The translations under genes and the position numbers were made by a program. Positions 29,656 through 45,603 of a DNA stretch of 64,000 bases are shown in pieces. Below the pieces are notes generated by a model, which saw nothing but the letters and a program-made list of their open reading frames with translations, was not told the DNA's origin and searched no databases. The DNA is from an uncultured Collinsella sp. (GTDB taxonomy: Bacteria > Actinomycetota > Coriobacteriia > Coriobacteriales > Coriobacteriaceae), in the NCBI GenBank assembly GCA_900547125.1, contig URFU01000001.1:7731-71730 (forward strand), written 5' to 3'. Within the stretch, counting starts at the first letter, position 1, and every line of letters begins with the position of its first letter.

Positions 29656-29752
29656 TTATTCGGTGAACGGTAGTTGATTAATATAATGTTTTCCCAGCTA
29701 AAGGCTATTTTTTCCGAGCAATACAATAAGCTTGCAACCGTTCACCGATTGG
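29656..29752. promoter_or_regulatory. Inverted pair of the GGTGAACGGTAGTT motif in the divergent promoter region.
   Basis: cggtgaacggtagtt at 29661-29675 and aaccgttcaccg at 29736-29747. The region is AT-rich. Confidence 0.55.
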
Positions 29753-29832
29753 ATATAACATATTGAATATATTGTTGTAACAATATTAGAGACAATGTCA
29801 CAAGCCTGTCGTTCTAGTCAAAGGAAGTAACA

Positions 29833-30753
29833 ATGCCCAAACGATTACTGAACATGTCCGCATCCGATTTTGCCGCCACGTCATCCATGGATCTAAAACA
29901 GGCAATTCTGGCTTCCGAGGGACGTACCATCATGGCGGAAAACGTACCCTCTTCCCAATTTCTCGGCGGCGTTACTAATGCAGAAATCGAACGTGCCGCA
30001 GGTGCCGACCTGCTTCTGTTTAACGCGCTCGATGTGTTCGATCCAGTTATTGCCGGTATTCCAGATGATCTCAATGAAAACCCGGTCACTTGGGTGAAGC
30101 GAGCATGCGGAAGGCCCATTGGCGTCAATCTGGAGCCAGTTGATAACGAGGCAGAGATGTCTGAATCCCGAACGGAAATCCCCATGGGTCGTCGCGTCTC
30201 TCCCAAGACCTTAGAAAAGGCTAACGAACTCGGATTTGATTTTATCTGCCTGACGGGCAACCCTGGAACCGGCGTCTCCAACGATGCAATCGCCCATTCG
30301 ATTAAACTCTCCAAAGAGCATTTCAATGGCCTGGTCATAGCCGGAAAAATGCATGGAGCGGGCGTTGCGGAACCTGTCATGACGCTCGAAATTGCGCGCA
30401 AGTTTGTTGACCTCGGCGTCGATATCCTTCTCGTGCCAGCCCCCTACACCGTCCCTTGCTTCCAAGAAGCAGACCTGCGCGCCATCGTAGACTTTGTACG
30501 ATCCCACAACGTAGGCAAGTCAATTGAAGAGAAGGTTCTCGTCATGGCGGCGAACGGGACGAGTCAAGACTCCTGCGACAGCGAGACCATTAAGAAAATA
30601 GGCCTTGCAGCAAAAGCAGCCGGCGCTGACCTCCAACATATCGGGGACTCCATGAACGGTATTTGCCTGCCCCAGAATATCTTCACGCTCGGACAAGCCC
30701 TTCGTGGATACAGGCATCAGATCGTCATGCTGAGCCGCTCTGTGATACGTTAA
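29833..30753 (+). CDS. Hypothetical protein, possibly a TIM-barrel sugar-phosphate enzyme. No confident family assignment.
   Basis: 306-aa ORF with good coding periodicity. Gly-rich phosphate-binding-like loops (LTGNPGTGVS, IAGKMHGAG). Sits divergent from IICB4 and upstream of a GntR regulator. Confidence 0.5.
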   Translation: MPKRLLNMSASDFAATSSMDLKQAILASEGRTIMAENVPSSQFLGGVTNAEIERAAGADLLLFNALDVFDPVIAGIPDDLNENPVTWVKRACGRPIGVNLEPVDNEAEMSESRTEIPMGRRVSPKTLEKANELGFDFICLTGNPGTGVSNDAIAHSIKLSKEHFNGLVIAGKMHGAGVAEPVMTLEIARKFVDLGVDILLVPAPYTVPCFQEADLRAIVDFVRSHNVGKSIEEKVLVMAANGTSQDSCDSETIKKIGLAAKAAGADLQHIGDSMNGICLPQNIFTLGQALRGYRHQIVMLSRSVIR

Positions 30754-30807
30754 GGTTACCTTGCCCACGTTACATCCCGACTGAGGCAACCATCAGGTAT
30801 AACCAAC

Positions 30808-31545
30808 ATGCAAACTGAGGCTCTAATGCTCGATACACACGAAAAACGGCCACTCTATTTACAGCTCACCGACGCGCTGCTCAAGCAGATCGTCGATGAA
30901 TATCAAGCAGACGATAAACTTCCAACAGAAATGGAACTCTGCGACGAATACGCCGTAAGCAGAACAACCGTCCGACTTGCCATGAGTGAGCTGGAGCGTC
31001 GTGGAAGTATCTATCGAATCCAAGGTAAGGGGTCGTTTGTTGCACCGAAACGCGTTAGCGAGCTCAATTCACTTTTAGACTTTGACTTTGCAAGCCATTG
31101 CGATGGCGTTGATCCAGATGCCATTACCAAACATTTCGGCGGCCTCACATCAGGTCGTCCAATTTCCGTAATGATGCTCCAACAATTTGGATGTCAAAGT
31201 CGCGACAAAATTCAGCGTCTTGAATTGACCTACGAACTTGAAGGCAGCTTCATAGGCGCTGATACGTTCTTCATTTCAAAGTCGCGCGTTCCAAATAACC
31301 AGTTAGATTTTCAGGCATTTAGCAGAATCATGGACGACTTGTCCAAGTCTATCCAATCTGTTAGGGAAAGCTATAGAGCACGTCAGCTTAGCGATTCCGA
31401 AGCCAGTAATTATGGTGTTGCAAAACTTCCGGTCATCGAACTGACTCATTATGCTTACGACTCCGGAGGCAAACTAATCTCAATTGTCTGCCGCACCGTC
31501 TTAACTGGGCGAATCCCTTATCAAAACTTTATTTTCAAGTCCTAA
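30808..31545 (+). CDS. GntR/HutC-family transcriptional regulator (UTRA effector domain).
   Basis: N-terminal winged [43 protein letters not shown]. Possible start at 30826. Confidence 0.8.
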
Positions 31546-31556
31546 TGTTCTTTTTC

Positions 31557-31700
31557 TTTTGTCTCGATCTGTAACACGTAGCCGAGTTTTTAAGTCCTAA
31601 CCGTTACAGATCGAGACAAACAAGGTAGGCCCCGCCGAATTGTCTCAATCTGTAACATCTGGTTGGTGGTTTCACCCCTACCTGTTACAGGTTGAGACGA
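31557..31700. repeat. Palindromic hairpin element family A, two tandem units.
   Basis: ttttgtctcgatctgtaaca[cgtagccgagtttttaagtcctaacc]gttacagatcgagacaaac, then ttgtctcaatctgtaaca[tctggttggtggtttcacccctacc]tgttacaggttgagacga. Confidence 0.85.
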
Positions 31701-31817
31701 TTTGATAGTGGAGTCCTTATTTGCGCGTCATATCGCGTAGCGCTGACGCGCTGGTTTCCACAATGACAGGAGGTAAAAGTCCTCCCGCATCACCCGTTGG
31801 CAATCCCGTAGCGATAA

Positions 31818-32609
31818 CTAGCAAATAACCTGCGTGTGTTCCTCGATGGCGGCACGATCCTCGGCGGCGATGCCCGGCTCGCACACCACGGCGTCCAAAT
31901 TGTCCAGGCGGCAGAAGGTGTAGAAGTCGCGCTTGCCGATCTTGCTGGAGTCGGCGATCAGATAGCGCGAGTCGGCCTTGCTAAAGGCGAGCTGCTGGAT
32001 GCGGCCCTCTTCCATATTGGATGTAGACACGTCGCCGTCCAGAATGCCGTTGGCACCGATAAACGCCGCGTCGATGCCCAGCGCACGCAGGGTATCCTCG
32101 GCCGTTGGTCCCACAAAAGCGGCGGTGCGGCGACGGTACATGCCGCCCACCAGGCACAGGTCGCAGTCTTCGCGCGCCTCGAGCAGGTTAAACACCGAAA
32201 GCGAATTGGTCACAATGCGCAGGCGAAACGCCGGCAGCATCGAGGCCATCTGCTCAACCGTGGTGCCCGTGCCCAAAAAGATGGTCGAGCCTTCCTCGAT
32301 AAGCTCCACAGAACGGCGCGCAATCTGCAACTTTTCCTCGGCATGCTTCGTGCGCTTTTCGCTGTGCGAATACTCATGGCGCAGCATAGCGTGTGGACGG
32401 CCCTGCGCACTGCGGGCTCCGCCGTGCACGCGCTCGATCTCGCCCAGGCTCGCAAGCTCCTCAAGGTCACGGCGGATCGTCATATCCGAGACACCTAACG
32501 CATCCGAAATCTCCTTGACCGAGACCGTTCCCTGTTCCTCGAGCAGCTGCCGAACCTTATCCTGTCGCTCCGCTTTAATCACGATGAGTCCTCGCTGTTC
32601 CACGCTCAC
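31818..32609 (-). CDS. DeoR-family transcriptional regulator (LacR/AgaR-like).
   Basis: N-terminal DeoR HTH (VSVKEISDALGVSDMTIRRDLEEL) plus a C-terminal DeoR sugar-phosphate-binding domain. It is the parent copy of the 27279 fragment. Confidence 0.85.
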   Translation of the reverse strand: MSVEQRGLIVIKAERQDKVRQLLEEQGTVSVKEISDALGVSDMTIRRDLEELASLGEIERVHGGARSAQGRPHAMLRHEYSHSEKRTKHAEEKLQIARRSVELIEEGSTIFLGTGTTVEQMASMLPAFRLRIVTNSLSVFNLLEAREDCDLCLVGGMYRRRTAAFVGPTAEDTLRALGIDAAFIGANGILDGDVSTSNMEEGRIQQLAFSKADSRYLIADSSKIGKRDFYTFCRLDNLDAVVCEPGIAAEDRAAIEEHTQVIC

Positions 32610-32787
32610 GTCAATTCAAACAATAACGAACAAATTGTATCAGACTCGCGCGCGTCAGAAATGAACGCCCGCACAGCTCCAATCATCACTTTTTTGAGAA
32701 AAATACCCCCTGCTTTAGTGGGGTGTAGTGATAATCTCGCCTGTTCGCGCTACAGTTTGTCCGAAATACCTCGATGTTAGGAACCAA

Positions 32788-33840
32788 ATGATCACTTCCG
32801 AGCTTTTCGGCACCGCGCCGTGCGGTACCCCCGTTCATTGTTACACCCTCAACGGGCCCGAGATCTGCGTTCGCATTATGGACTATGGCGCCACCGTGTT
32901 GGGCATCGACGTGCCCGACATCCCCGGCAACGCGCGCGATGTGGTGCTGGGCTTCGATAAGCTCGAGGATTACTTTGACAACCCCGCCTGCTTTGGCGCG
33001 ACCATCGGACCTGTGGCCAACCGCACTGCAGGTGCCACGATCACCATCGCCGGCACGGACTGGCATATGCCCGCCAACGAGGGCACCAACAACCTGCACA
33101 GCGATCTTGAGCATGGTCTGCACAAGCGCGTATGGGACGTTGAGCTCGACGAGGTCCACAATGCCGTGCGCATGACCACCTCGCTTGAGGACGGTGAGCT
33201 GGGCCTTCCCGGCAACCGCACCTTTACGGCCGTGTTTACCGTGACGCGCACCGGCTGCTTCCGTATCGAATATGGCTGTGAGAGCGACCGCGCCACGTAC
33301 GTGTCCATGACCAACCACACGTACTTTAACCTTGCCGGTCACAACGCCGGCATGGACTGTGAGCACTTCTTTGTTGCTAACGCTGCCCACTACCTGCCCA
33401 TCAACGAGCAGAATATCCCCACCGGAGAGATCGCTCCGGTCGAGGGCACGCCGTTTGACTTCCGTGAGCTGCGCCCCGTCGCGCCCGGCATGGAAGCCGA
33501 CGACCCGCAGATTAAGCAGGCCCGTGGCTACGACCACTGCCTGTGCATCGATGACTATCAATACGGTCGCAACCTGCGCCGCGCCCTGCATGTCGAGGAG
33601 ATGTGGACCGGCCGCGAGCTGGACTACTACACCACCGCCCCGGGCGTGCAGCTCTACACTGGCAATTGGCTGGGCGACGAGCACGCCAAGGACGATGCCA
33701 ACTATAGCTGGGGCGCCGGCTTTGCCCTCGAGGCAGAGATGTACCCCGACACGCCGCACCAGCCGCTGTTCCCGCAGGGCATTGTGGGCCCCGGTCATCC
33801 CTACAGCAATGTGATCGAATACCACTTTATGAGGCACTAG
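32788..33840 (+). CDS. galM: Aldose 1-epimerase (galactose mutarotase).
   Basis: ~350 aa mutarotase-fold protein (…NRTAGATITIAGTDWHMPANEGTNNLHSDLEHGL…). ATG at 32788 preferred over the GTG at 32728 used by the ORF track. Confidence 0.75.
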   Translation: MITSELFGTAPCGTPVHCYTLNGPEICVRIMDYGATVLGIDVPDIPGNARDVVLGFDKLEDYFDNPACFGATIGPVANRTAGATITIAGTDWHMPANEGTNNLHSDLEHGLHKRVWDVELDEVHNAVRMTTSLEDGELGLPGNRTFTAVFTVTRTGCFRIEYGCESDRATYVSMTNHTYFNLAGHNAGMDCEHFFVANAAHYLPINEQNIPTGEIAPVEGTPFDFRELRPVAPGMEADDPQIKQARGYDHCLCIDDYQYGRNLRRALHVEEMWTGRELDYYTTAPGVQLYTGNWLGDEHAKDDANYSWGAGFALEAEMYPDTPHQPLFPQGIVGPGHPYSNVIEYHFMRH

Positions 33841-33867
33841 GCCCACAACGCGACATATTGCACAGCA

Positions 33868-33903
33868 ACGCCCGCCGGCACCACCGCCGACGGGCGTTTT
33901 TTC
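33868..33903 (+). terminator. Rho-independent terminator after galM. Same motif as 5251.
   Basis: aacgcccgccggcaccaccgccgacgggcg followed by ttttttcat. Confidence 0.55.
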
Positions 33904-33954
33904 ATCTTTTGGGCTCAATTTCGCTGAGACTGTATGAGTGACATATCAAAACTA

Positions 33955-34092
33955 TGCCCATTTACTACGTTTAGCCCGGGATGCTCGACCATGCACCGGT
34001 TTTTGCTAAATTCGCGAGCCGCCTACCTGCGGTTTTGTTTTTCTCAAATTCGACATGCTCGGCGATAGCCGATCAAACGTAGTAAATGGGCA
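33955..34092. repeat. 138-bp element bounded by 18-bp perfect inverted repeats.
   Basis: tgcccatttactacgttt (33955-33972) and aaacgtagtaaatgggca (34075-34092). Contains ctacctgcggttttg, which is also found at 45394. Confidence 0.7.
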
Positions 34093-34166
34093 TTGTTTTT
34101 GACAGGCAGCATCGCACGCGTCCCTCGCAAGGGCAAAATGATTCGTTTTTCTCCGTCCCCAAGGGA

Positions 34167-34649
34167 TCAGTTGAACAGATTGCCGATGGGGTCGGGGTTG
34201 GAGCTGGGGAGGTAGCGGATCTCCAGCTCTACTCCGAGCTTTTGCAGTTCTCTGAGAGCAGCGACATCTGCGTCGTCTACGGCAACTGCGGGCGTTGCAG
34301 GACGCTTGCCCTCCCCTGCCTGCATATGGCCAATGCTGATCTTGGTAATCGGCACACCACCCTTAACCAGCGCGAGTGCATCGGCGGGTGAGGCCACCAT
34401 GATCAGAATCCATTGACGCGGCGTTGCGGTATGGATGATGTCGATGGTCCTTTGCACCGAGAAAAACCGTGTCCACACGCCCTCGGGCGCCGCGACCCTC
34501 ATAGGCGCCCATTGGCGCGAATCCGCCGCAATCTCGTCGTTAACGATCAGGACAAGATTGGAACCAATCGCCTCGTTCCACAGCTCAACGTCTTGCCCGT
34601 AAATAAACCGGTCATCGATACGTGTAAGAAGGATCCTGGGTTGAGCCAT
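34167..34649 (-). CDS. PTS mannose/sorbose-family IIB component (orphan copy).
   Basis: MAQPRILLTRIDDRFIYGQ… with the conserved phospho-His region. Paralog of 43903..44385. No adjacent IIA/IIC/IID. Confidence 0.8.
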   Translation of the reverse strand: MAQPRILLTRIDDRFIYGQDVELWNEAIGSNLVLIVNDEIAADSRQWAPMRVAAPEGVWTRFFSVQRTIDIIHTATPRQWILIMVASPADALALVKGGVPITKISIGHMQAGEGKRPATPAVAVDDADVAALRELQKLGVELEIRYLPSSNPDPIGNLFN

Positions 34650-34806
34650 GGCAGCCCCATTCTGTTTGAGACCCATAAGAGCAAGACTTCGCGTTTCCAA
34701 TATTAGTGCATTTAAAGTGAGAAAAGCCGTCAGAACACTTGCGCGGATGTGCGATGTCCCGTATCATAGACAGCCGTTGACGCCTCAGTTGCGTCATCAC
34801 ATGGCC

Positions 34807-34882
34807 GCCAGCGTAGCTCAGTTGGTAGAGCACCGCTCTCGTAAAGCGGGGGTCACCGGTTCGAGCCCGGTCGCTGGCTCCA
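34807..34882 (+). tRNA. tRNA-Thr (anticodon CGT).
   Basis: Cloverleaf GCCAGCG-TA-GCTCAGTTGGTAGAGC-A-CCGCT-CTCGTAA-AGCGG-GGGTC-ACCGG-TTCGAGC-CCGGT-CGCTGGC-T-CCA, with the 7-bp acceptor stem paired and CCA encoded. Confidence 0.85.
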
Positions 34883-34894
34883 TTGCACAAGATA

Positions 34895-34917
34895 GCCGCC
34901 CTCGGGCGGCTTTTTTG
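34895..34917 (+). terminator. Terminator after tRNA-Thr.
   Basis: agccgccctcgggcggct followed by tttttg. Confidence 0.7.
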
Positions 34918-35089
34918 TTGCTGATTTCGGGCGCGCTTCCGCCAATCCAAGCACAACGCCGCCGGAAACTCTCCTACTCAACAAAAGCCCCGCCAACCGC
35001 AATCCCCAAGGGAACCGCGATTAACGGGGCTCAAGCGCGCTCCTCAATGGAATCACGTCATCAGACGAGCAGCTCAGCCGAGCAGTGCG

Positions 35090-35563
35090 TTACTCCTCCC
35101 AGTAAGCGTCTGCAAGCAGCTTAAAGCAGATCTTCTTGACCGGCTGTGCGCCATCGCCCGGGAACTCGAGCGTGGGCATGTGAGGCTCGCCGGCAACAAA
35201 CAGCGCGAACTTGTCGTCGGCAAGATCGCCGGCGATCGAAGCGTCGGAATCGACCAGATCGTAGTCGTCCTTCTCGTCAAACTCCTGAACCAGCGTCAGG
35301 CTGCCCGTGGCAACCTTAAAGGCCTCGCGACCCTCGACGTCGATCTGCAGGTCGTGATAGCGCTGATGCGTCTCATAGTGAGCCTCGGCTTCGGGACGCG
35401 TCGTGGGAGCCATGACGTTCGCAAAGACCTTGTCGCCCAGAATCGGATGGCTGCCGACCTCGAGCTTCGCCGGATCGTTCTCCTCGAGCCAGTCGATCAG
35501 CACGTCGAGGCCCTTGAGCATTCCACGGTACTCCTCGATATCGCCCAATGCACCGTAAATCAT
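35090..35563 (-). CDS. YhcH/YjgK/YiaL-family protein (DUF386, sugar-metabolism associated).
   Basis: 157 aa cupin-like protein, MIYGALGDIEEYRGMLKGLDVLIDWLEEND…. Assignment is from family memory. Confidence 0.6.
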   Translation of the reverse strand: MIYGALGDIEEYRGMLKGLDVLIDWLEENDPAKLEVGSHPILGDKVFANVMAPTTRPEAEAHYETHQRYHDLQIDVEGREAFKVATGSLTLVQEFDEKDDYDLVDSDASIAGDLADDKFALFVAGEPHMPTLEFPGDGAQPVKKICFKLLADAYWEE

Positions 35564-35760
35564 CTAAATCCCCTCTCGGATCGTTTCTTTGGCGGCTACT
35601 CGGCAAACGCATTACCGACGCTGTTGCCACCCACATGCGTCTCGACCAGGGTAAGGTCGGGATTGAACACGACAACGTCGGCGTCGCGCCCCGACATAAT
35701 GCTATCGCACTTGTCGTCGACATGAGCTAGCAACCGATGCCGGGGCCGCAGCACAAGCTC

Positions 35761-36696
35761 CTACAGCTCGGTCACGACAACGCCGTTGTAAACCTCGTCC
35801 CAACGATCCATAACCAAGTGGCCAGTCATGGGATCCATGGCATTGAGCTTGCCGCAGGTGTTGGCGGTACGCAGCACCGTCTCGTCGTCGGCGCCGGCAG
35901 CAATCGCATGTGCGAAACCGGCAATGGTCGAATCGCCAGAGCCCGTAGCGTTAACGGCGGGGATATCGGGGGTCTTGGCGCGGAACGCACGGCCGTTATG
36001 GAAACCAACGGAGCCGGCAGCGCCCATGGATACGACGACCCAGGGGATATCGGAGAAGCGGGCGTCAGAGGCGAGCGCGGAACGGAGCTCGTCCACATCG
36101 TCGGTGGTAAAGCTCGTGCCCAGAAGGCCGTTAATTTCGGTCAGGTTAGGCTTAACCAGCTCAGGCTTGACCTTGGACTTGAGCGCAGCCTCGAGCGAGG
36201 CGCCCGAGGTATCGAGCAGCACCTTGGCGCCGGCGTTCTCGGCAATGCCCGTGATCTTGGCATAGTAGTCTGCCTCGACACCGCGGGGCAGAGAACCCGA
36301 AATGGTGACAACGTCGGCCTTGCCCGCAAGCTCAGTAAATTTGGCGGTAAAGGCATCGAGCTCCTCGGGGGCAATTGTCGGGCCGCTCTCGAGCAGCTCG
36401 GTCTGGTTGCCGGCGTGGAGAATGTTGAGGCAAATTCGAGTCTCGCCCTTGATGGGCACAAAGTCGTTGTTAATACCGTTGGCGTCCATGAGCTCAGCCA
36501 TGTAGGCGCCCATGTGGCCGCCGAGTAGACCGGTTGCCACAACGTCGTCGCCCAGCTGACCCAGCACACGGGCCACGTTGAGGCCCTTGCCGCCGGCGGT
36601 CTTTTCGGGCGTCACGCGGTTGACGTCGTCGATAATGAGCTCATCGAGCTGATAGCGCGTATCGACAGACGGGTTCATCGTAACGGTGAGGATCAT
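35761..36696 (-). CDS. lacC: Tagatose-6-phosphate kinase, second paralog.
   Basis: 311 aa, ~85% identical to 7065..8000 (MILTVTMNPSVDTRYQLDELIIDDVNRV…). Confidence 0.9.
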   Translation of the reverse strand: MILTVTMNPSVDTRYQLDELIIDDVNRVTPEKTAGGKGLNVARVLGQLGDDVVATGLLGGHMGAYMAELMDANGINNDFVPIKGETRICLNILHAGNQTELLESGPTIAPEELDAFTAKFTELAGKADVVTISGSLPRGVEADYYAKITGIAENAGAKVLLDTSGASLEAALKSKVKPELVKPNLTEINGLLGTSFTTDDVDELRSALASDARFSDIPWVVVSMGAAGSVGFHNGRAFRAKTPDIPAVNATGSGDSTIAGFAHAIAAGADDETVLRTANTCGKLNAMDPMTGHLVMDRWDEVYNGVVVTEL

Positions 36697-36755
36697 TTTT
36701 AGCTCCTTATCTCGCAGGCTCCTTGTGCCTCGCGATACGAGTCGACAAAACGGAA

Positions 36756-37637
36756 TTACAGAATCTCAATCGTGAACGAGCGTACGATGGTCTCCTTGGG
36801 CTTGGCGACAAGGCAGCCGCGCTTATGCTCAAGTACGTCGTCCTCATCGGAGCAGGTCGAGAGGCCGCCCCAGGGTTCAACTGCAACAAAATCGCCCTCG
36901 GGCTTACTCCACACAATGAGATACGGGAAGCCCTCAAAGCTCAGGCGGACGCCCTTGTCCTCCCCCTTCTTAGAAAGCGTAACCTGACGGCTCTCGAGCA
37001 CGTCAAAGATGGTCTCCGCAAAATCGAAGAGCTCGTGCGACAGGGGCAGCGTCTTTCCCACCATGGGGTTCTTGGAGCGGTTTGCCACGTCAATCAAGCC
37101 AGTCGAGGGAACGGCGGTGCAGAGCTCCGCAGCCTCGTCTTTCTCAAAGCGCAACTCGTAGTCCGTATAGGCCTCGCCCTCATCGAGCGGACACCTAAAG
37201 CCGGGATGACCGCCGATAAAGAACGGCATGTCCTCGGTCCCCTCGTTGGTCACCTCATAGGAGACGCGCACGGCGGTATCCTCGAGCGTATAACGAGCGA
37301 CAAGCTTAAACGGGTACGGATAATCGCTCAGCAGCGCGGCGTTATCCTCCGAAGCCAGGCACATCGCCAGCTCGTTCTCGCCTTGGCTCAGCAGCTTCCA
37401 CTCCTGTTTGCGCGCAAACCCGTGGCGAGCGAGCTTTACATGATGCCCGGCAAACGTCATGGCGCTGTTGTCCCGCAAGCCTGCGCAAATCGGGAAGCAA
37501 ATCGGTGCCTGGCCAGACCACACGGCGGGATCGCCCTGCCACAGATACTCGCGACCTCCGGCCTCAATCGAGGTAAACGAACCGCCAGCCGTGGACACCT
37601 TAATAGAAATCGAATCGTTGGAGAGAGCGTATTCCAT
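36756..37637 (-). CDS. Aldose 1-epimerase-family protein (LacX-like).
   Basis: MEYALSNDSISIKVSTAGGSFTSIEAGGREYLWQGDPAVW… is typical of the LacX/YihR family. Start at cat 37635-37637 with an AAAGGA RBS. The long N-terminal extension in the ORF track is rejected. Confidence 0.75.
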   Translation of the reverse strand: MEYALSNDSISIKVSTAGGSFTSIEAGGREYLWQGDPAVWSGQAPICFPICAGLRDNSAMTFAGHHVKLARHGFARKQEWKLLSQGENELAMCLASEDNAALLSDYPYPFKLVARYTLEDTAVRVSYEVTNEGTEDMPFFIGGHPGFRCPLDEGEAYTDYELRFEKDEAAELCTAVPSTGLIDVANRSKNPMVGKTLPLSHELFDFAETIFDVLESRQVTLSKKGEDKGVRLSFEGFPYLIVWSKPEGDFVAVEPWGGLSTCSDEDDVLEHKRGCLVAKPKETIVRSFTIEIL

Positions 37638-37794: not shown

Positions 37795-38379
37795 ATGCGA
37801 ACCATCATCCTCTACGCCTCGCGCCATCACGGCAATACGAAAAAGCTCGTGGACGCCATCGTCGAGGCACACCCCGAGATCGATACCCTCGACGTCAAGG
37901 CGCTTGGCAAAAACGAGTATCCCAACCTGCACGAATATCATCTGATCGGTGTCGCCACGGGAATCTATTACTCCGAGATCGACAAGGACATGGCACGCGT
38001 GCTCACGAACGTGCTGCAGCCGCAGGACAAGGTGTTTGGCCTTATGACCTACGGTGGCAAAAACAAGTGGTACGGCAAGGATATCGATGGCATCTGCCGC
38101 ATGAGGCAGGCCATCTTTATGGGTGTCTACGGCTGCCCCGGCTTTGATACGTGGGGGCCGTTCAAGCTCGCCGGCGGTGTCCAAAAGGGACACCCGACCG
38201 CCGAGGAAATTAAGGGCGCCGTCGACTTCTTCGACAAGATCGAAGACGAGTATGGCGACATCATCGTCGAAGAGTACGCCAAGCGTGAGAAGCGTCTAGC
38301 CTACGAAAAGGAGCATCCTGCGGGAGGTCTTGTGGCCGGCGTCAAGCGCACGGCAAAGAAGATCGCTAACAAGCTGTAA
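37795..38379 (+). CDS. Flavodoxin-family protein.
   Basis: MRTIILYASRHHGNTKKLVDAIVE…. Short-chain flavodoxin-like fold; ~195 aa. Confidence 0.65.
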   Translation: MRTIILYASRHHGNTKKLVDAIVEAHPEIDTLDVKALGKNEYPNLHEYHLIGVATGIYYSEIDKDMARVLTNVLQPQDKVFGLMTYGGKNKWYGKDIDGICRMRQAIFMGVYGCPGFDTWGPFKLAGGVQKGHPTAEEIKGAVDFFDKIEDEYGDIIVEEYAKREKRLAYEKEHPAGGLVAGVKRTAKKIANKL

Positions 38380-38412
38380 CTGTGAAGGTGCTTTTGAGCG
38401 TTTAACCCATAC

Positions 38413-38448
38413 GGCGGGTCCGAGCAGATTCGGGCCCGCCGTCTTTTT
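38413..38448 (+). terminator. Bidirectional-type terminator between the flavodoxin gene and nagA.
   Basis: acggcgggtccgagcagattcgggcccgccgt followed by ctttttct. Confidence 0.6.
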
Positions 38449-38454
38449 CTATCG

Positions 38455-39630
38455 TTACTCGGTAAAGGCGTTGCCGACGCTCTGGCCGCCAACATACGTC
38501 TCGACGAGGGTGAGCTCATGGTCGAACACGACAAAGTCGGCGTCGCGACCCGGCATGATGCTGCCGCACTTATCCTCGATGTGCGCGGAGCGTGCCGGCA
38601 CCTCGGTTGCCATGCGAATGGCGATATCGGCGCTGGCGATGCCCCAGTCGACGATGTTCTTGACGCCCTGGGCAAGCGTGAGCACCGAGCCGGCAATGCT
38701 CTTGCCGTCAGCGAGCCAGCACAGGTTGTCCTTCATGATGACGTCCATGCCACCACTGGTGTAGCTGCCCTCGGGCATGCCGCCGCAACCCAGGCAGTCG
38801 GTGATGAGCACCGTGTGCTGCCAGCCCTTTGCCTGCAGCAGTGCCTTGATGGCGGCAGGGTTTACGTGCTTGCCGTCACAGATGATCTCGGCGTAGGTCT
38901 CGGGCGTGGACATGGCAGCGCCCACGACACCGGGCTCACGGTGATGCAGCCCGCGCTGACCGTTATAGGTATGCGTAAAGCAGCTGGCACCGGCGTTGAT
39001 GGCGGCGATGCACTCATCGTAGGTGGCGTCGGAGTGACCGATGCTGGTCACCACACCCTTGGCGTTCAGAGCAGCCGCATAAGCAGCGGCACCGTCGCGC
39101 TCGGCCGCCATGGCGCGCTTAACGATGCGACCACCCGCAGCCTCCTGCCACTGATCGAAGACCTCCTCGGAGGGATCGATAAGATAAGCGGGGTTCTGCG
39201 CACCCACGTGCTTCATGGTAAAGAAGGGGCCCTCCAGGTAGATGCCCTGAATGCGAGCACCGCAGAAGTCGGGGCCGCGACCCTCGTCCGCCTGAGCGAT
39301 GGCGGCGCAGGCGTCCTTGATCTGCTCGACGCCATCGGTGAACGTCGTGGGCAGCCAGCTGGTGGTGCCGCGACGGGCGAGCTCGGTCGAGCTGATATCG
39401 ATGCCCTCGGGATCGTTATCGGTAGTTGAGTGGTTGTAGAAGCCATGGATGTGAGTATCGACCATACCCGGCGCGATCCACGATCCCGTGTAGTCCTTAA
39501 TCTCGCAAGAGGGCTCGTCGGCCTGCCAGGCGCCAAAGACGCCATCCTCGACCATAAGATAGCCGCCCAGTTGCGGGCCTGCCGGCAAGAAGAACTTGTC
39601 AGCCTTAATTGCGTACGTGCTCATATGCAC
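38455..39630 (-). CDS. nagA: N-acetylglucosamine/galactosamine-6-phosphate deacetylase.
   Basis: Amidohydrolase with metal ligands MVDTHIHG. ~390 aa; NagA/AgaA family. Confidence 0.85.
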   Translation of the reverse strand: MHMSTYAIKADKFFLPAGPQLGGYLMVEDGVFGAWQADEPSCEIKDYTGSWIAPGMVDTHIHGFYNHSTTDNDPEGIDISSTELARRGTTSWLPTTFTDGVEQIKDACAAIAQADEGRGPDFCGARIQGIYLEGPFFTMKHVGAQNPAYLIDPSEEVFDQWQEAAGGRIVKRAMAAERDGAAAYAAALNAKGVVTSIGHSDATYDECIAAINAGASCFTHTYNGQRGLHHREPGVVGAAMSTPETYAEIICDGKHVNPAAIKALLQAKGWQHTVLITDCLGCGGMPEGSYTSGGMDVIMKDNLCWLADGKSIAGSVLTLAQGVKNIVDWGIASADIAIRMATEVPARSAHIEDKCGSIMPGRDADFVVFDHELTLVETYVGGQSVGNAFTE

Positions 39631-39741
39631 TCCTTGCTTCTAAAGCAGTTGACTGTAGTGATGCTTATACCCAGCTCACGGAAAACAAAAAGCGCCCGCC
39701 CGCCGTTATGAGCGGACGGGCGCCCTTACAGGGGGACGCGA

Positions 39742-40908
39742 TTAAGCGGTGAAGGGGTGAATCGTCACGCCCTTAACCACGCGGTTGACCGTGCCGGTGG
39801 GGCTCGGCGTATCGGGCGTGTTGCCCACGCGCACGGAGTTGAGCAGGCTGATAGCCTGGGCAAACATCACGAACGGCAGAGCAAGGTAGCCCTCGGGAAG
39901 TGCCTCGTAGCCCTTAAAGGTGAAGGACTCACCCTCATAGACGGTGGCACCTTCCTGCTGAACGGCGATGGTGTGCTGAGCGATTTCGTCGCCACCGATC
40001 TCGTTGAGGATGTCGATGTCGTACTGACGGGTGTAGGCGTCGTTGTTGACGAACACGAAGACGAGCGTCTTATCGTCGACGAAGGACTTAGGTCCGTGAC
40101 GATAGCCCATGGAGGTGTCGTAGGAAGTAGCGACCAGACCGTGAGCGAGCTCGAGGATCTTGAGCTGGCTCTCCTGGGCAAGGCCACCGAAGGAGCCAGA
40201 ACCCAAGTAGGTCACGCGGTTGAAGTCGCCAGCCAGGTAATCGGCGATCTCGGGCTCACGGGAGATGACCTCCTCGCCCATCTTGGCAATCGTCTCGACC
40301 CACTCGGCCTTCTGCTCGTCAGAGGCAGTGTCGAAAATAAGGGTAGAGAGCAGGGTCATGCAGGAATAAGAACCGGTCATGGCGAAGCCCTTGTCGTTGG
40401 CGCGCGGAATGAGCAGCGTCAGCGCGTTGGGATCATCGGCAGATTCGACGGCGAGCTTGCCCTCGGGAGCGCAGGTGATGTTGAGGAACTTGACGTTGTG
40501 GACGAGCTCCTTGGCAACGGCAACGGCGGCAAGGCTCTCGGGGCTGTTGCCAGAGCGGGCGAAGGAAACCACGAGCGTGGGATCCTCGGCGCGCAGGAAG
40601 TCGCGCGGGGCGCTCACGATGTCGGTCGTGGCGATGGGCTTAAAGTCGTAGAGATCAGTGTTGCCAGCGTGACGCAGGTACGGGGCGCAGGTATCGCCAA
40701 CGTAGTCGGACGTACCGGCACCGGTGAAGACAACGGACAGACGACCCTCGCCCATAGCGCGAGCCTCGGCCAGGAAGGCCTCGATGGCCTCCTTGTTCTC
40801 GCGATAGATGTTGAGCGTATCACGCCAAAGCTCGGGCTGCTGAGCAATCTCGGCCGTGGTGATCTGGGCGCCGAGCTCGGTGAGCTCCTCGACACTCTTC
40901 TCGAACAT
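39742..40908 (-). CDS. agaS: SIS-domain sugar isomerase/deaminase AgaS (galactosamine-6-phosphate deaminase-type).
   Basis: 388 aa, two SIS domains. The N-terminus MFEKSVEELTELGAQITTAEIAQQPELW is characteristic of AgaS. Confidence 0.8.
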   Translation of the reverse strand: MFEKSVEELTELGAQITTAEIAQQPELWRDTLNIYRENKEAIEAFLAEARAMGEGRLSVVFTGAGTSDYVGDTCAPYLRHAGNTDLYDFKPIATTDIVSAPRDFLRAEDPTLVVSFARSGNSPESLAAVAVAKELVHNVKFLNITCAPEGKLAVESADDPNALTLLIPRANDKGFAMTGSYSCMTLLSTLIFDTASDEQKAEWVETIAKMGEEVISREPEIADYLAGDFNRVTYLGSGSFGGLAQESQLKILELAHGLVATSYDTSMGYRHGPKSFVDDKTLVFVFVNNDAYTRQYDIDILNEIGGDEIAQHTIAVQQEGATVYEGESFTFKGYEALPEGYLALPFVMFAQAISLLNSVRVGNTPDTPSPTGTVNRVVKGVTIHPFTA

Positions 40909-41022
40909 TTTTAATACCTCTCTCTAGAAGTAATCCTCTGACGTGCAATTATACACTTCGGTTGGTTATCTGGTAGTAACCAGTTAAATGCAAAGAATCA
41001 TCATATGGAAACGATGCGGACA

Positions 41023-41754
41023 CTAATCGCTACGCTGGTGGTAAACCTTGTATTTAAACTGATCGGCACGAGCAACCGAGAGTGTGTACTCCACAACCTC
41101 GTTTGACTCGTTATACGTAGTCCTGACCAAATCGAGCACAGGCGAGCCCTCGACAATTCCCAAAAGGTGGGCGTCGGTGGGACGGGCTATGCTCGCATAG
41201 AACTCCTCTTCGGCCACGCGTATCTTTTGCTGAAAGTCTTGCTCAATCACATCGTAAAGCGGCTTACGCTCCAGCAGCGGTCGCTTTAGGGACAGAAATT
41301 GACGAACTGGTAGATAGCTGCGTTCGACCATCATGGGCATGTTGTCGGCAGAACGAAGGCGCTTAAGCTTAAAAATGCGATCACCGATACGCAATCCCAT
41401 ATGCTCGGCCAGATTTTTATCGGCCTCCATCTCGCAAAACTCGAGAATCGTGGTCTCGGGGTCGCGACCCATCGCGCGCATCTGCTCGGTAAAGCTGTAG
41501 GACTGCATAAGATTGGTTGCTTTTGCCGAACGGTCGGTCACAAAGGTACCGCGACCGTGCTGCCGAACCACCAGTCCTAAACGCTCCAGTTCCTGCAAAG
41601 CCAGGCGCACCGTGGTGCGCGAGAGACCATAGCGCTCCGAAAGTTCGCGCTCGGAAGGAATCATGTCACCGGCGCGATATTCATGGTCGATCTTTTCGGT
41701 CAGAATATCGACCAGCTGATCGTACAGCGGTTGCTTACGCGCTCCGATCGCCAT
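41023..41754 (-). CDS. GntR/HutC-family regulator (AgaR/NagR-like) of the amino-sugar cluster.
   Basis: [33 protein letters not shown] plus a UTRA domain. Confidence 0.85.
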   Translation of the reverse strand: MAIGARKQPLYDQLVDILTEKIDHEYRAGDMIPSERELSERYGLSRTTVRLALQELERLGLVVRQHGRGTFVTDRSAKATNLMQSYSFTEQMRAMGRDPETTILEFCEMEADKNLAEHMGLRIGDRIFKLKRLRSADNMPMMVERSYLPVRQFLSLKRPLLERKPLYDVIEQDFQQKIRVAEEEFYASIARPTDAHLLGIVEGSPVLDLVRTTYNESNEVVEYTLSVARADQFKYKVYHQRSD

Positions 41755-41839
41755 CCTATCCTCCCTTTTGCTCGAATTCGGCTAACTACCTAGGGTGTTT
41801 AGCATTATCTGTCTGCCACACCCGAATCATCAAGAAAAC

Positions 41840-41880
41840 AAAAGCCGCGCGCTCTTTCGAGCACGCGGCTTTTAACATAC
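41840..41880 (-). terminator. Terminator after the PTS IID gene.
   Basis: Minus strand reads aaaagccgcgtgctcgaaagagcgcgcggctttt followed by gttttc. Confidence 0.6.
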
Positions 41881-41939
41881 ACATGGCTTAAGGGGTCGGG
41901 GTGTGAGCCGCGTAGGGACACACCCCTCAAGCTAGAGCC

Positions 41940-43022
41940 TTACCAGATGCTCGGCCAGAGACCAAGCGGGCCGGCGCCCAGGATGCCAAGGACGAAGAGC
42001 AGGAGAATGCCCTTGGTCGGGGTCCAGCTGTGCTTAGCGAACATGTAGTAAAGCAGCAGCGTAAGCATAAGCGGGACGAGCTTCGGGACGATGGTGTTGA
42101 GGGTGTCGGCAACAGAGAAGTTGACCGGATCCTCGGTAACGGTAGCGTAGGTCACGGACTCCATGCCGTTGCCCAGATCGGCGACGCCGCACTTGACCTC
42201 GTTGCCGTCGGCATCGGTGGCGGTGAGGGCGTTGCCGTCCTCATCGGTCATGGCGATGGTACCGGCCTCAGCGGTCTCGGTATCGATGCCCTCCATACCG
42301 GTGAAGTTCTCGGCCTCCTTCTCGGAGACGATCACGGTAGTAGGGGCAAGGCCACGGGTGGTGCCGTTGGGGATCTGGAGGTTGATCTGGGTGCCACCCA
42401 TGGTGACGACCAGGCAACCGACGACGAAGACGCCCATGATGGAAGCGGCACGCGTGAAGGCCTGCATGTTGGCGGGCAGAGCGTCAATAGCGCTGGTGCC
42501 AAGCTTGTAGGACCAGTTCATGAGCCAGAAGCGCAGAGCGAACTGGACGGCGTTGAAGATCACCAGGAAGATGATCGGCGCAGCGGCGTTGCCGTTGATG
42601 GCCATGTTGGAGGTGATGCCGGCCGTGATAGGCACGAGCGTCAGCCAGAACAGGGCGTCACCGATACCACCGAGCGGGCCCATTGCGGCGACGCGGACGG
42701 CGCGGATCGTGGGGATGTCAACCTTGTTCTGCTCGAGCGAAAGCACGATGCCCATAACAAAGGTGACGAGGAACGGGTGGGTGTTGAAGAACTCCAGGTT
42801 GTGGCTCATGGAAGCCGCGAGGTCGTTCTTGTTGGTGTGGATCTTCTCCAGACCGGGGATGATGGAGTAGAGCCAGCCAGCGGCCTGCATACGCTCGTAG
42901 TTGAACGAGGCCTGCAGGAAGCAGGAGCGCCAAGCCATCTTGTTGAGGGTCTTCTGGTCGAGCTGCGGAGCAGGAGTGAGATCCTCGTAGTGCTCCGGGA
43001 TCACATACTCATTAGATGCCAT
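41940..43022 (-). CDS. PTS mannose-family IID component, with an unusual ~80-90 aa acidic/Thr-rich insertion.
   Basis: ManZ/AgaD-like (WRSCFLQASFNYERMQAAGW…). Start at cat 43020-43022 with a GGAGGTG RBS; 10-bp overlap with IIC. Insertion at roughly 42077-42347 (GTTRGLAPTTVIVSEKEAENFTGMEGIDTETAEAGT…). Confidence 0.85.
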   Translation of the reverse strand: MASNEYVIPEHYEDLTPAPQLDQKTLNKMAWRSCFLQASFNYERMQAAGWLYSIIPGLEKIHTNKNDLAASMSHNLEFFNTHPFLVTFVMGIVLSLEQNKVDIPTIRAVRVAAMGPLGGIGDALFWLTLVPITAGITSNMAINGNAAAPIIFLVIFNAVQFALRFWLMNWSYKLGTSAIDALPANMQAFTRAASIMGVFVVGCLVVTMGGTQINLQIPNGTTRGLAPTTVIVSEKEAENFTGMEGIDTETAEAGTIAMTDEDGNALTATDADGNEVKCGVADLGNGMESVTYATVTEDPVNFSVADTLNTIVPKLVPLMLTLLLYYMFAKHSWTPTKGILLLFVLGILGAGPLGLWPSIW

Positions 43023-43812
43023 CTTCGAAGTCACCTCCGTCAGAAACAGCTGCACCCTTCAGCTCGGTCTGCTGCTGGAAGTCCCAGAAAGCGATGCCGA
43101 AGCCGATGAGAGCGAGGATGAGCAGAGCAGGGGTTGCCAGCGAATCGTTGGCAACGGTGATGAGCGCGAGGCCGAAGCCCATGAGGAAGAAGCCCCACAT
43201 ATCGCGGTTCATCATAACCTTGAGCAGGACGGCGAAGCCGACGAAGCGCATCATGCCGCCTGCAGCGGACAGACCGGTCTGCAGCCACGTCGGGATGGCA
43301 GAAGCGATGGTCTGACCGATGGTAGCGCCAGCGATGAAGAACAGTGTGACGACGACAGCGAAGATCAGGCCGAGCAGAGCCATGGCGAAGTAGTTCAGGC
43401 GCTCGATGCCCTTGGTGTCCGCGTTGTGAGCCATGTTATCGGCCGTGGACATAAGCGGGGACATAAGCGTGAAGACCAGGGTAACGCCAAGCTGGCCAAG
43501 CAGAGCGAACGGAATGGCGAGGCCGACTGCCGCGTTGGGCTCGAGGCCCGTGGCGATAGCGAGAATGGCTGCCATGATGCCGCCGATGACGGCGTTAGGC
43601 GGCTGAGCGCCTCCGATCGGCATGTTGCCGATCGTCATGAGCTGATAGGTACCACCCACGAGAAGACCGGTGTTGAGGTCGCCAAGGATAAGACCGATGA
43701 CGGCGCCGGTGACGATGGGCTGATAGAGAGACTCGAGGAAGTCAAACTGGTCGATTGCCGCGATGAACGTGACAACGAAGACCAGAGCGATCTGGATGAT
43801 CGAGTATTCCAT
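43012..43812 (-). CDS. PTS mannose-family IIC component.
   Basis: 266 aa polytopic ManY/AgaC-like protein. Confidence 0.85.
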   Translation of the reverse strand: MEYSIIQIALVFVVTFIAAIDQFDFLESLYQPIVTGAVIGLILGDLNTGLLVGGTYQLMTIGNMPIGGAQPPNAVIGGIMAAILAIATGLEPNAAVGLAIPFALLGQLGVTLVFTLMSPLMSTADNMAHNADTKGIERLNYFAMALLGLIFAVVVTLFFIAGATIGQTIASAIPTWLQTGLSAAGGMMRFVGFAVLLKVMMNRDMWGFFLMGFGLALITVANDSLATPALLILALIGFGIAFWDFQQQTELKGAAVSDGGDFEDGI

Positions 43813-43902
43813 CTTGCTCCTCCTTTCAAAATGTATGTACGCACTTTGGATATCACGTACAGAACGTCAGGGTTTCACTCCTGACAACGTGGATCACGAG
43901 GA

Positions 43903-44385
43903 TTACGAGAAGAGCTTGCTCGTGTCCTCAACAGGCGTGCTCGGAACGCGCCTGATCTCCAACTCCACCCCCAATTCCTGCAGCTCTTTAAACGCAGCGA
44001 CATCCTCGTCGTTAACTGCGACGGAGGTGGCGACTTGGCGCTTTCCTTCCGACATGTGCATGTTGCCGATGTTTACCTTCTTTATAGGCACACCGCCCTT
44101 GACGAGCGTAAGCACGTCTTCCGGTGTTTCGGCCACGATGAAGATCTTCTGGCGCGGGCTCGCCTTGCCAATGACGTCGATGGTCTTCTGCAGGGAGAAG
44201 AAACGCGTAGCGACGCCGGCGGGAGCGGCCATCTTCATGAGGTTCTGGCGCATGGTGTTGGACGCCACGTCGTCGTTGGCGACGAGGATGAGGTTGGAGC
44301 CCAGAGTGGAGTTCCACTGGGTGGCAACCTGACCATGAACCAGTCGGTTATCGATGCGGGTAAGAAGAATGTTGGGTTCTGCCAT
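43903..44385 (-). CDS. PTS mannose-family IIB component.
   Basis: MAEPNILLTRIDNRLVHGQVATQW…. Confidence 0.85.
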   Translation of the reverse strand: MAEPNILLTRIDNRLVHGQVATQWNSTLGSNLILVANDDVASNTMRQNLMKMAAPAGVATRFFSLQKTIDVIGKASPRQKIFIVAETPEDVLTLVKGGVPIKKVNIGNMHMSEGKRQVATSVAVNDEDVAAFKELQELGVELEIRRVPSTPVEDTSKLFS

Positions 44386-44421
44386 GTTGATCAGCTTCCT
44401 TTCGATATTTGCTGACGACAG

Positions 44422-44703
44422 TTACTTGATCTCCTGAATCGCGTAACGCGAAACATCTACGACGGCTCCGGATCGGACTTTGATCTGGACCTTCTCGCCT
44501 TCGAAGCCTTTGACGGTTCCGTAGATACCGCCGGCGAAAAGAACCTCCTGACCCGGCTTGAGCTCGGTGTGCAGCTCCTTGAAGTACTTCTGCTTCTTCT
44601 TCATGTTGATTTGCGACCAGATGGTGTAAATCAAGCCCATGATGACAAGCAGGCCTAAAAGAGCGACCGAGGAGCTCAGGACGTTGGCTCCGAAATCGGC
44701 CAT
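44422..44703 (-). CDS. YajC-like small membrane protein (preprotein translocase YajC family) embedded in the PTS operon.
   Basis: 93 aa with a single N-terminal TM helix, then KPGQEVLFAGGIYGTVKGFEGEKVQIKV. YajC-like genes occur in GalNAc/mannose-type PTS operons. Confidence 0.65.
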   Translation of the reverse strand: MADFGANVLSSSVALLGLLVIMGLIYTIWSQINMKKKQKYFKELHTELKPGQEVLFAGGIYGTVKGFEGEKVQIKVRSGAVVDVSRYAIQEIK

Positions 44704-45146
44704 TAGATGCCGTCCTCGTCGCCGAAGATATCCTCTTCCTCGGAGTCGGCAACGGATGCGACCGTCTGGGCGGTGACGCCCGTCTGGCCAACGGTCACGG
44801 CCTGCTCGCCAAGCTCGGCGAGCGTGGCATTGCCGCGGAGGAACAGAAGCTCAATAACCATGGGAAGGTTGGTGCCAGTCAGAACCTCGACGTTATCGAC
44901 ATCCTGGGCAATCATCATCGACTGGTTGAACGGGGTGCCGCCAAGCAGGTCGGTAAAGACGAGCACGCCATCGCACTCCTCGCGCATAGCGGTAATAGCG
45001 GCGCGGAGATCCTCACCGTAGGATGCAGCCTGGTCGCCCTCAAAAGGAACGACGGTAAAAGCAGGCTGGTCGCCAGCAACCATAGCGATAGCGCTTGCAA
45101 GGCCGGGTGCGAACTGTCCATGACCGGTAAGAATAAAGCCAACCAT
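44703..45146 (-). CDS. PTS mannose-family IIA component.
   Basis: 147 aa, MVGFILTGHGQFAPGLASAIAMVAG…. First gene of the operon, with a 1-nt overlap onto yajC. Confidence 0.85.
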   Translation of the reverse strand: MVGFILTGHGQFAPGLASAIAMVAGDQPAFTVVPFEGDQAASYGEDLRAAITAMREECDGVLVFTDLLGGTPFNQSMMIAQDVDNVEVLTGTNLPMVIELLFLRGNATLAELGEQAVTVGQTGVTAQTVASVADSEEEDIFGDEDGI

Positions 45147-45339
45147 TCAAATTTCCCTTCCGAAGGTGTGTACAATCTGAGTCCGATGATTTTCGGAAGC
45201 CAGCGGGCGCTCGCCCTTAAAGCTTCTTGGAAAGCGTTCTTTGAAGACCAGTGGTTTCTAAACTGGTAGTAACCACGTGACGTGTTGTTGTCACTATATC
45301 ACCCCAGAAGAGGTCGCTTTCGTTGATTCATACGGTAAA

Positions 45340-45603
45340 ACGTTTTTGCACCGCTCACGGTGATAAATCGACCGTTTACCGCTCGTTAATACTTCTACCT
45401 GCGGTTTTGAAACCGTTTCGAAATGCTTTGGAAAAAGATCAGAACTTTTATTGTGTCTAAACAACGCAGGGCGGCTATAAATAGCGTAAAGAAAAATTGC
45501 AGGTCATTGTGAAGATATGTGAATTGGTCTTTTTGTCTTAATACCAGTTAGAACCAGTTTTGAGATTATCGGTGAACGGTAGTTTTCGACCGTTCACCGG
45601 TTA
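45340..45603. promoter_or_regulatory. Regulatory region of the mannose-type PTS operon containing the perfect dyad CGGTGAACGGTAGTTTTCGACCGTTCACCG.
   Basis: The dyad lies at 45570-45600. A weaker variant lies at 45349-45380. ctacctgcggttttg lies at 45394-45408. Confidence 0.55.

Follow-up and report, generated by a model that had tools for sequence, protein, structure and literature searches.

The subject of this analysis is a short sequence, GGTGAACGGT, that recurs upstream of catabolic genes in a 64,000-nucleotide stretch of DNA from an uncultured Collinsella sp. (GenBank assembly GCA_900547125.1, contig URFU01000001.1, positions 7,731 to 71,730 of the forward strand; the whole stretch is hereafter called the window). 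We predict with high confidence that the GGTGAACGGT elements are protein-binding sites of one shared regulator that is not local to the genes it precedes. With more modest confidence, we favour as this regulator a LytTR-type response regulator of the BtsR/LytT (LytS–LytTR) type, which would be encoded outside the window and serve Collinsella and other Coriobacteriales related to it as a global transcription factor.

An earlier note on this DNA had reported an identical 15-mer with inverted partners at two loci, and these are indeed present at both. The 15-mer, CGGTGAACGGTAGTT, lies exactly where it had been placed, at 29661-29675 upstream of the gene IICB4 (site 1) and at 45570-45584 upstream of a mannose-type, aga-like phosphotransferase system (PTS) operon (site 2). 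The inverted partner, ACCGTTCACCG, starts at 29737 rather than at 29736 in site 1 (29737-29747, with a 65-bp spacer) and occupies 45589-45599 in site 2 (with an 8-nt spacer). Site 2 (45570-45599) is a perfect dyad with 11-nt arms and an 8-nt spacer, 30 bp in total rather than the 31 bp that had been given. The weaker versions noticed at 45349-45380 take the form of a direct repeat, ACCGCTCAC-N12-ACCGTTTAC (45350-45379), and the half-site described in the lacABC promoter is ACCGTTCAC, in the lacA upstream region (9274-9282). The AT-rich setting is also borne out, with a GC content of 0.45-0.47 in both regions compared with about 0.6 for the window, and the views that the elements are distinct from LacI operators and point to a single shared regulator are supported.

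Taken alone, the exact 15-mer repeat is unremarkable: the window contains 77 direct-repeat pairs of at least 15 nt, mostly in paralogous genes. The motif is significant because its short core clusters in intergenic DNA, and not because of the identity of the 15-mer. With up to one mismatch, GGTGAACGGT has 11 matches in the window compared with 3.7 expected, a number that none of 100 shuffles reached, and the 11-mer CGGTGAACGGT has five copies where about 0.03 would be expected. All nine copies of the exact 9-mer GTGAACGGT are intergenic, while intergenic DNA makes up only about 15% of the window, and the 7-mers GAACGGT and CGGTGAA are among the most enriched in this DNA (z of about 8). These counts and the intergenic bias rule out a chance origin of the elements.

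The dyad, which had been taken as the architecture of the sites, is not their typical arrangement. The usual form is a pair of direct 9-mers, GTRARCGGT (reverse complement ACCGYTYAC), with a 12-bp AT-rich spacer and hence a period of 21 bp. The window contains eight pairs with exactly this period, all of them intergenic, and in a matrix scan they stand clear of the background (Table 1). The window sites scored by the matrix also served to train it; the exact-word statistics, the conservation across genomes and a test on E. coli DNA (the last two described below) are independent of this training. When near-matches to the core are paired in direct orientation, a spacing of 21 bp is the most frequent, with four pairs compared with at most two at any other spacing, and the 12-nt spacer is kept in eight of eight window pairs and in all Collinsella site classes. 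A logo built from 16 independent sites shows that the two 9-mers are equally conserved and that the spacer centre is W-rich. Its flanks reveal a conserved C two bases before each unit and M-G after it, so that the recognition unit spans approximately 9-13 bp, (C-S)GTRARCGGT(M-G). With a 21-bp period, the two units face the same side of the helix, presumably so that a dimer can bind them. A weaker matrix pair at 57020-57049 lies inside a comFC-like coding sequence and, as a probable chance match, was dropped from the count.

Both reported sites are atypical members of this larger set. Site 2 is a normal pair with a third, inverted unit 8 bp away, and site 1 consists of two isolated perfect units, inverted and 65 bp apart (74 bp from centre to centre). 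The motif had been thought to concern IICB4 and the aga-like PTS operon, yet it precedes nearly every catabolic unit in the window. In the divergent regions between LacI and PTS genes, the pair precedes a TTGACA-like hexamer on the LacI side by 2-5 bp and is 170-240 bp away from the PTS start codon; either promoter could be its target. Beyond the second unit of the pair at 17299, TTGACA comes after 5 bp in the direction of the LacI gene. The right unit of site 1 overlaps a putative -35 element and spacer of the DUF7916 gene, TTGCA-ACCGTTCAC-cgattgga-TATAAC.

Table 1. Units and 21-bp-period pairs in the window, with matrix scores and genomic context
Feature	Coordinates	Strand	Matrix score	Context
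Site 1, left unit CGGTGAACGGT	29661..29671	+		155 bp upstream of IICB4 start (29506), in divergent IICB4/DUF7916 intergenic region
Site 1, right unit (ACCGTTCACCG on + strand)	29737..29747	-		Upstream of DUF7916 gene
Site 2, extra inverted unit CGGTGAACGGT	45570..45580	+		Left arm of dyad
Site 2, pair GCAAACGAT-N12-GTGAACGGT	45589..45618	-	22.2	Proximal unit is right arm of dyad
Pair GTAAACGGT-N12-GTGAGCGGT	45350..45379	-	27.6	204 bp upstream of mannose-type IIA start (45146)
Pair GTAATCGGT-N12-GTGAACGGT	2192..2221	-	26.8	Between LacI gene (1006-2037, minus) and galK (2302, plus)
Pair CCAAACGGT-N12-GTGAACGGT	9274..9303	-	23.5	172 bp upstream of lacA (start 9102)
Pair ATGAACGGT-N12-GTGAACGGT	11147..11176	+	28.7	125 bp upstream of lactose-type PTS IIA gene (start 11022, minus)
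Pair GTGAACGGT-N12-GTGAGCGTA	12333..12362	-	21.8	Between LacI gene (11237-12241, minus) and IICB gene (12599, plus)
Pair GCGAACGGT-N12-GTAAGCGGT	17299..17328	-	24.4	Between LacI gene (16148-17233, minus) and GH1 gene (17521, plus)
Pair GTGAACGGT-N12-ATAAACGGC	22159..22188	-	24.0	Between LacI gene (21075-22154, minus) and IICB gene (22361, plus)

We scanned one genome per species with GTRARCGGT-N12-GTRARCGGT, which gave at least 120 matches. Of the 120 listed, 44 come from Collinsella, Coriobacteriaceae or Atopobium, which identifies the source of the window as Collinsella of the aerofaciens group, and all 44 of these are intergenic; the other listed matches that were examined are mostly tandem arrays or microsatellites. 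By chance, about 0.001 matches would be expected per 2.4-Mb genome, and several single assemblies nonetheless give two different loci. Some of the listed matches are orthologs of window sites, with flanks that are 90-97% identical, and others are new loci: two pairs approximately 230 bp apart upstream of arcA/arcB, and sites upstream of argG/argH, upstream of an FctA-type LPXTG pilin gene, upstream of a pflA-like radical-SAM activase gene and in a PTS EIIC/dehydrogenase/GntR unit. A scan of metagenomes for the dyad form also gave at least 120 matches, those listed being mostly the dyad of the aga locus in human gut samples. In addition, a dyad GTGAACGGTCGATATTGACCGCTCAC is found directly upstream of a pyruvate phosphate dikinase (PPDK) gene on metagenome contigs of lower GC content (0.47-0.49) that are not assigned to Collinsella.

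The positions of the sites persist at orthologous loci while the flanking DNA diverges. The pair at 45350 has orthologous sites in at least eight Collinsella genomes (flanks 90-97% identical), its neighbour at 45589 is conserved in seven of the loci examined (L021, L029, L064, L071, L084, L095 and L105), and the 45570-45599 dyad recurs in many Collinsella assemblies and gut metagenome contigs, with arm changes that are uncompensated. Orthologs of the pairs at 9274 and 11147 lie in a single locus (L113:2381 and L113:4274, respectively, both units of the latter being perfect), and those of the pair at 17299 in two others (L040 and L070). Substitutions in these orthologous sites stay within the R/Y degeneracy of the consensus. 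At the site at 22159, the weak unit ATAAACGGC becomes GTAAACGGT in other species and its strong partner becomes GTGAGCGGT. Site 1 can be followed in more distant loci. Where the DUF7916 protein is 74% identical (L252), both units are kept, as CGGTGAACGGTAG and ACCGTTTACCG, and the intervening 62 bp are unrelated in sequence; at 85% identity (L249), the left unit persists beside a decayed right unit and a new pair with perfect spacing is found in the neighbouring IICB/LacI region; in a third locus (L251), both units are weak.

We favour a LytTR-type regulator because the sites' repeat length, 21-bp period and sequence match those of LytTR sites. The latter are described as two direct or inverse repeats of 9-11 nt, 11-13 nt apart (PMC4847170), or as repeats of 8-13 bp approximately 12 bp apart (PMC4064291), and B. 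subtilis LytT recognises a pair of 13-nt boxes with 8 nt between them, within a palindromic region (PMC5626966). The Collinsella sites have two imperfect repeats of 9 bp, or of 13 bp with their flanks (16 sites aligned), separated by 12-nt spacers, and their sequence is akin to that of characterised sites: the BtsR site gives the top matches, as set out below, and the AlgR site of rhlI agrees at eight of nine positions. The Collinsella-trained matrix was also applied to E. coli K-12, over 14 kb surrounding btsT. The two best matches make up the experimentally defined BtsR (YehT) site, CTGAGTGGT-N12-GTAAGCGGT-N11-TTGAGCGGC, with approximately 0.07 matches expected at that score. One unit of this E. 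coli site is identical to a Collinsella unit, and the spacers contain T-runs in both organisms. The strand that reads ACC faces btsT in E. coli; in Collinsella, about 11 of 14 sites have it directed at the catabolic gene.

Several observations weigh against this identity. The ACC strand has the opposite orientation at three places: lacA, the aga operon and the distal arcA pair. No LytTR, LytS, response-regulator or histidine-kinase gene was found in the window with Pfam, and tblastn with BtsR and BtsS found none in the Collinsella loci examined, which represent a small part of a genome; over all of the loci examined it returned only generic receiver-domain matches in unrelated taxa. A regulon of at least 15 operons would be unusual, as the characterised BtsR and LytT control one or a few transporter genes, and no motif-bearing target of the cstA/btsT or lrgAB type was seen among the sites examined. 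Matches to convincing sigma-70-type promoters around the sites are too few to fix their positions. Finally, the 9-mer also equals positions 2-10 of the catabolite-responsive element (cre) consensus of Firmicutes.

This last point leads to a global regulator of another family, which we rate as possible rather than probable: a CcpA-like LacI-family protein for which the units would be cre-like half-sites, an AraC-type or SorC-type protein, or an undescribed direct-repeat binder. The regulon would then be, with the same reserve, the Collinsella counterpart of Firmicute catabolite repression. Positions 2-10 of cre read GWAANCGNT, to which GTRARCGGT fits, and the content of the regulon (PTS sugars, arginine deiminase, pfl-related and pilus genes) is CcpA-like. 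The Streptococcus-type DUF7916 promoter has a cre-like TGACACCGCTTACA where the window has TTGCAACCGTTCAC, and the failure of tblastn to find a LytTR gene in the loci examined also speaks for another family. However, a cre is a 14-nt pseudo-palindrome, TGWAANCGNTNWCA, with both halves conserved, and the resemblance of the Collinsella units ends with positions 2-10. The outer positions (1 and 12-14) match at approximately 1.0 of 4 per unit compared with 1.25 by chance, and the units are therefore not pseudo-palindromes. We rejected LacI operator half-sites and cre as the identity of the elements, the core matching and the symmetric partner being absent. Nor is a fixed 21-bp direct repeat a LacI-family arrangement, and the unit keeps a G at position 8 and tolerates a change of CG to TG (ACCACTCAC in L251), both of which fit the BtsR motif instead. 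AraC-type dimers, too, recognise direct repeats spaced at 21 bp, but such a site would show two blocks, whereas the Collinsella unit is one continuous block. To our knowledge, none of the CRP/GlxR, Rex, GlnR, PhoP, ArgR, CggR and AraC motifs fits the unit together with its 21-bp direct repeat; these names are leads only.

Closer at hand, the DeoR protein (31818-32609) or one of the two GntR proteins of the window had been proposed to bind the dyads and to co-control IICB4 and the aga-like PTS operon. The genes of these regulators are indeed close to both sites, DeoR-family proteins often bind repeated, non-palindromic sites, and many of the window's targets lead into the tagatose-6-phosphate or galactose routes. 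Yet we consider a local binder improbable, because the motif also precedes unlinked genes in other loci (arcA, argGH, pilin, pflA-like and PPDK genes). The sites of a local regulator would be confined to its own locus or pathway, usually including its own promoter, and the elements are not so distributed; the matrix scan of the window found no motif pair upstream of the DeoR gene. Moreover, distinct operators fit each local regulator better. For the GntR encoded at 30808, the candidate is ATATTGTTGTAACAATAT (29769-29786), which includes TTGTTGTAACAA (29772-29783) and is kept at every DUF7916 locus examined; its counterpart in the DUF7916 loci of Enterococcus and Streptococcus is TGTTATAACA, and these loci are devoid of GTGAACGGT pairs. 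TGGTTTCTAAACTGGTA at 45252-45268, with a near-copy at 45542-45556, would fit as the operator of the UTRA-type GntR encoded at 41023. For DeoR itself, the candidate operator is the 12-mer CAAAAAAGAACA, found exactly in the upstream regions of lacA (9255-9266) and of IIA (11113-11124), with a two-mismatch copy beside the DeoR gene (32621-32632). Even less probable, in our view, is that the elements act as hairpins in RNA or DNA (a terminator, an attenuator or a processing site) or are remnants of small mobile or repetitive extragenic palindromic (REP)-like repeats. The site 2 dyad folds at -22 kcal/mol (z = -4.8) and the window does hold two true palindromic repeat families, but most sites are direct repeats that are unable to fold. 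The dyad, stable as its hairpin may be, sits between divergent genes with no U-tract following it, and its arms vary independently between strains with no compensatory pair (GTGAACGGT/ACCGCTCAC, GTGTACGGT/ACCGCTCAC and GTGAACGGT/ACCGCTCAG), unlike the compensated stem and U-tract of a terminator or structured RNA. Only 9-13 nt are conserved, and orthologs share neither the flanks nor the 62-65 bp that separate the two copies of site 1. REP elements and miniature inverted-repeat transposable elements (MITEs) were also rejected as an identity, the true palindromic repeats of the window being different in sequence.

If the regulator is of the LytTR type, its phosphorylated form would bind the pairs as a dimer, on one face of a bent AT-rich spacer, and would act over the sugar-specific LacI, GntR and DeoR repressors. 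One signal would in this way couple the PTS and catabolic operons with arginine deiminase, the argGH genes and a pilus gene. We infer that activation from upstream positions is likely at most sites; a unit lying over a promoter, such as that at 29737, may instead mediate repression. By analogy with AlgR, for which this has been proposed, the two units of site 1, 74 bp apart, could cooperate by looping. Pyruvate or carbon overflow is suggested as the signal because of the analogy with BtsS/BtsR and LytS/LytT, together with the PPDK, pfl-activase and PTS targets; pyruvate itself is a tentative, rather unlikely choice. It is similarly a speculation, and doubtful as it stands, that a LytS/LytTR system sensing pyruvate, at first a switch for one transporter, has expanded in Collinsella and its relatives among the Coriobacteriales to become a master regulon of carbon and energy metabolism. 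If true, this regulon would sit over the sugar-specific repressors and coordinate PTS uptake, which itself forms pyruvate from phosphoenolpyruvate, with the tagatose and Leloir routes, and would further span host sugars of the N-acetylgalactosamine (GalNAc) type, PPDK, the pfl activase, arginine deiminase, argGH and pili. It would constitute a new logic of catabolite control in place of CcpA or CRP, into which horizontally acquired Firmicute PTS islands have been wired.

Pfam matches describe the window as a carbohydrate island. It contains five LacI genes, four lactose/cellobiose-type IICB genes, three phospho-glycosidase genes of glycoside hydrolase family 1 (GH1) and one lactose-type IIA gene, as well as lacA, lacB, a pfkB kinase gene, galK, galT and a DeoR gene with a truncated copy. 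An IICB-DUF7916-GntR unit is also present, together with the mannose-type PTS operon, which has agaS-like, nagA and GntR/UTRA genes. The aga cluster has no LacI gene, despite small palindromes of the LacI/cre type with a central CG in its intergenic region, TTGAAACCGTTTCGAA and GCAAAAACGTTTTACC (45405-45421 and 45330-45345, respectively). Between the IIA gene and lacA, a 337-residue membrane protein with no Pfam match is encoded on the minus strand (9411-10424). Beyond the aga sites, 45811-46488 encodes a 225-residue multi-pass membrane protein that has no Pfam match and a DUF2975-like look. It is followed by a 79-residue XRE-type helix-turn-helix gene (46498-46737), below the 80-residue limit of the open reading frame (ORF) listing, and the two genes (45811-46737) form a common type of small regulator/membrane protein pair.

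The IICB4-DUF7916-GntR island is probably of Firmicute origin, because the closest DUF7916 homologs outside the group are found in Firmicutes (Enterococcus, Streptococcus and Clostridium, approximately 70-73% identity) and because the island has a low third-position GC content; it now carries the sites of its host. The index of the assembly collection lists the DUF7916 protein in more than 2000 blocks. The island is bracketed by two DeoR copies: the truncated one (27279-27686) nearly duplicates the 3' half of the intact gene (31818-32609), with exact blocks of 25-38 nt, which suggests a horizontally acquired insertion with a duplicated target.

The abundance of Collinsella as an actinobacterium of the human gut gives these sites a wider interest. 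One easily recognised operator ties together lactose and beta-glycoside PTSs, the breakdown of galactose and tagatose, a GalNAc-type PTS, both the catabolism and the synthesis of arginine, and a pilus gene. From this come a concrete map of the regulon, a handful of probes with which to find the regulator and a testable idea of a pyruvate or overflow signal, and a horizontally acquired PTS island of Firmicute type is seen to carry its host's own sites. In the literature searched, we found no description of global gene regulation in Collinsella, of its regulon or of its LytTR proteins, and searches with the motif strings returned primers only. The type of site is already known, whereas the motif, the Collinsella regulon and its breadth were not found in that literature.

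Other features of the window deserve mention in their own right. Four operons carry a palindromic repeat of approximately 65-75 nt at their 3' ends, present once or twice at each (15990-16139, 20994-21064, 25714-25869 and 31558-31660). Its arms, TTTGTCTCGATCTGTAACAyCTAGCC and the reverse complement, provide the most over-represented 7-mers in the intergenic DNA of the window; possible identities of the repeat are a REP/MITE-like element and a family of terminators. The second palindromic family (10545-10612, 60802-60872 and 61942-62010) consists of AGTTGCGGTGAAATAGGGA, a loop of approximately 25 nt and TCCCTATTTCACCGCAACTT, and two of its copies flank a zinc-ribbon gene (60920-61921). An inverted repeat with 32-nt arms that are 91% complementary (TTTCGGTATCACGAACATGCTTTCGGTGTCAT) lies at 25922-25996, just upstream of a Fic-domain gene at 26005, and a 31-nt direct repeat (5328-5358 and 6839-6869) flanks an AAA_14/DUF4143 ATPase gene (5506-6807) and may be an insertion footprint. 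A raiA RNA motif (Rfam RF03072, 149.5 bits) is located on the minus strand at 54498-54758; since it overlaps the 5' part of the ORF called at 53411-54817, the start of this ORF is probably wrong. The 494-residue ORF at 55170-56654 has an implausible N-terminus and overlaps the comFC-like gene (56293-57106, minus), and these gene models need revision.

Four known systems can be compared with the one described here. Catabolite control by CcpA at cre in Firmicutes is alike in the kind of regulon (secondary PTS sugars, arginine deiminase and pfl) and in its action over local repressors, and the 9-mer overlaps the cre core; however, a cre is a 14-16 bp pseudo-palindrome for a LacI-family dimer, whereas the Collinsella units are asymmetric and arranged as 21-bp direct repeats. 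AlgR of P. aeruginosa, a LytTR-family protein, recognises single CCGTTCGTC or CCGTTCATC sites in either orientation and can act at a distance. Its 9-bp core, in either version, resembles CCGTTCACC of Collinsella, and it is likewise a global regulator that also controls pili, with distant sites that cooperate, for which looping has been proposed (PMC4064291), as may be compared with site 1. It differs in being proteobacterial, in its targets (alginate, twitching motility and quorum sensing) and in its sites, which are usually not 21-bp pairs. LytS/LytT of B. subtilis (pftAB) and LytSR of staphylococci and streptococci (lrgAB) are also tied to pyruvate and overflow metabolism. The LytT regulon is a single operon beside its own genes, and the likeness is one of geometry: 13-nt boxes with an 8-nt gap (PMC5626966) reproduce the 21-bp register of the pairs and the spacer of the 45570-45599 dyad. 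The closest parallel is to BtsS/BtsR (YehU/YehT) of E. coli, a pyruvate-sensing LytS/LytTR system with its site in the btsT (yjiY) promoter. BtsR controls essentially one transporter gene, whereas at least 15 operon classes carry sites here; Collinsella favours T at the fifth position (ACCGTTCAC), and neither a BtsS/BtsR homolog nor a CstA-type target was seen in the Collinsella loci examined. The two systems nevertheless have in common ACC(G/A)CT(C/T)A units in direct repeats with a period of 20-21 bp, T-rich spacers, an ACC strand that faces the regulated gene and a unit, ACCGCTTAC in E. coli, that is identical in both.

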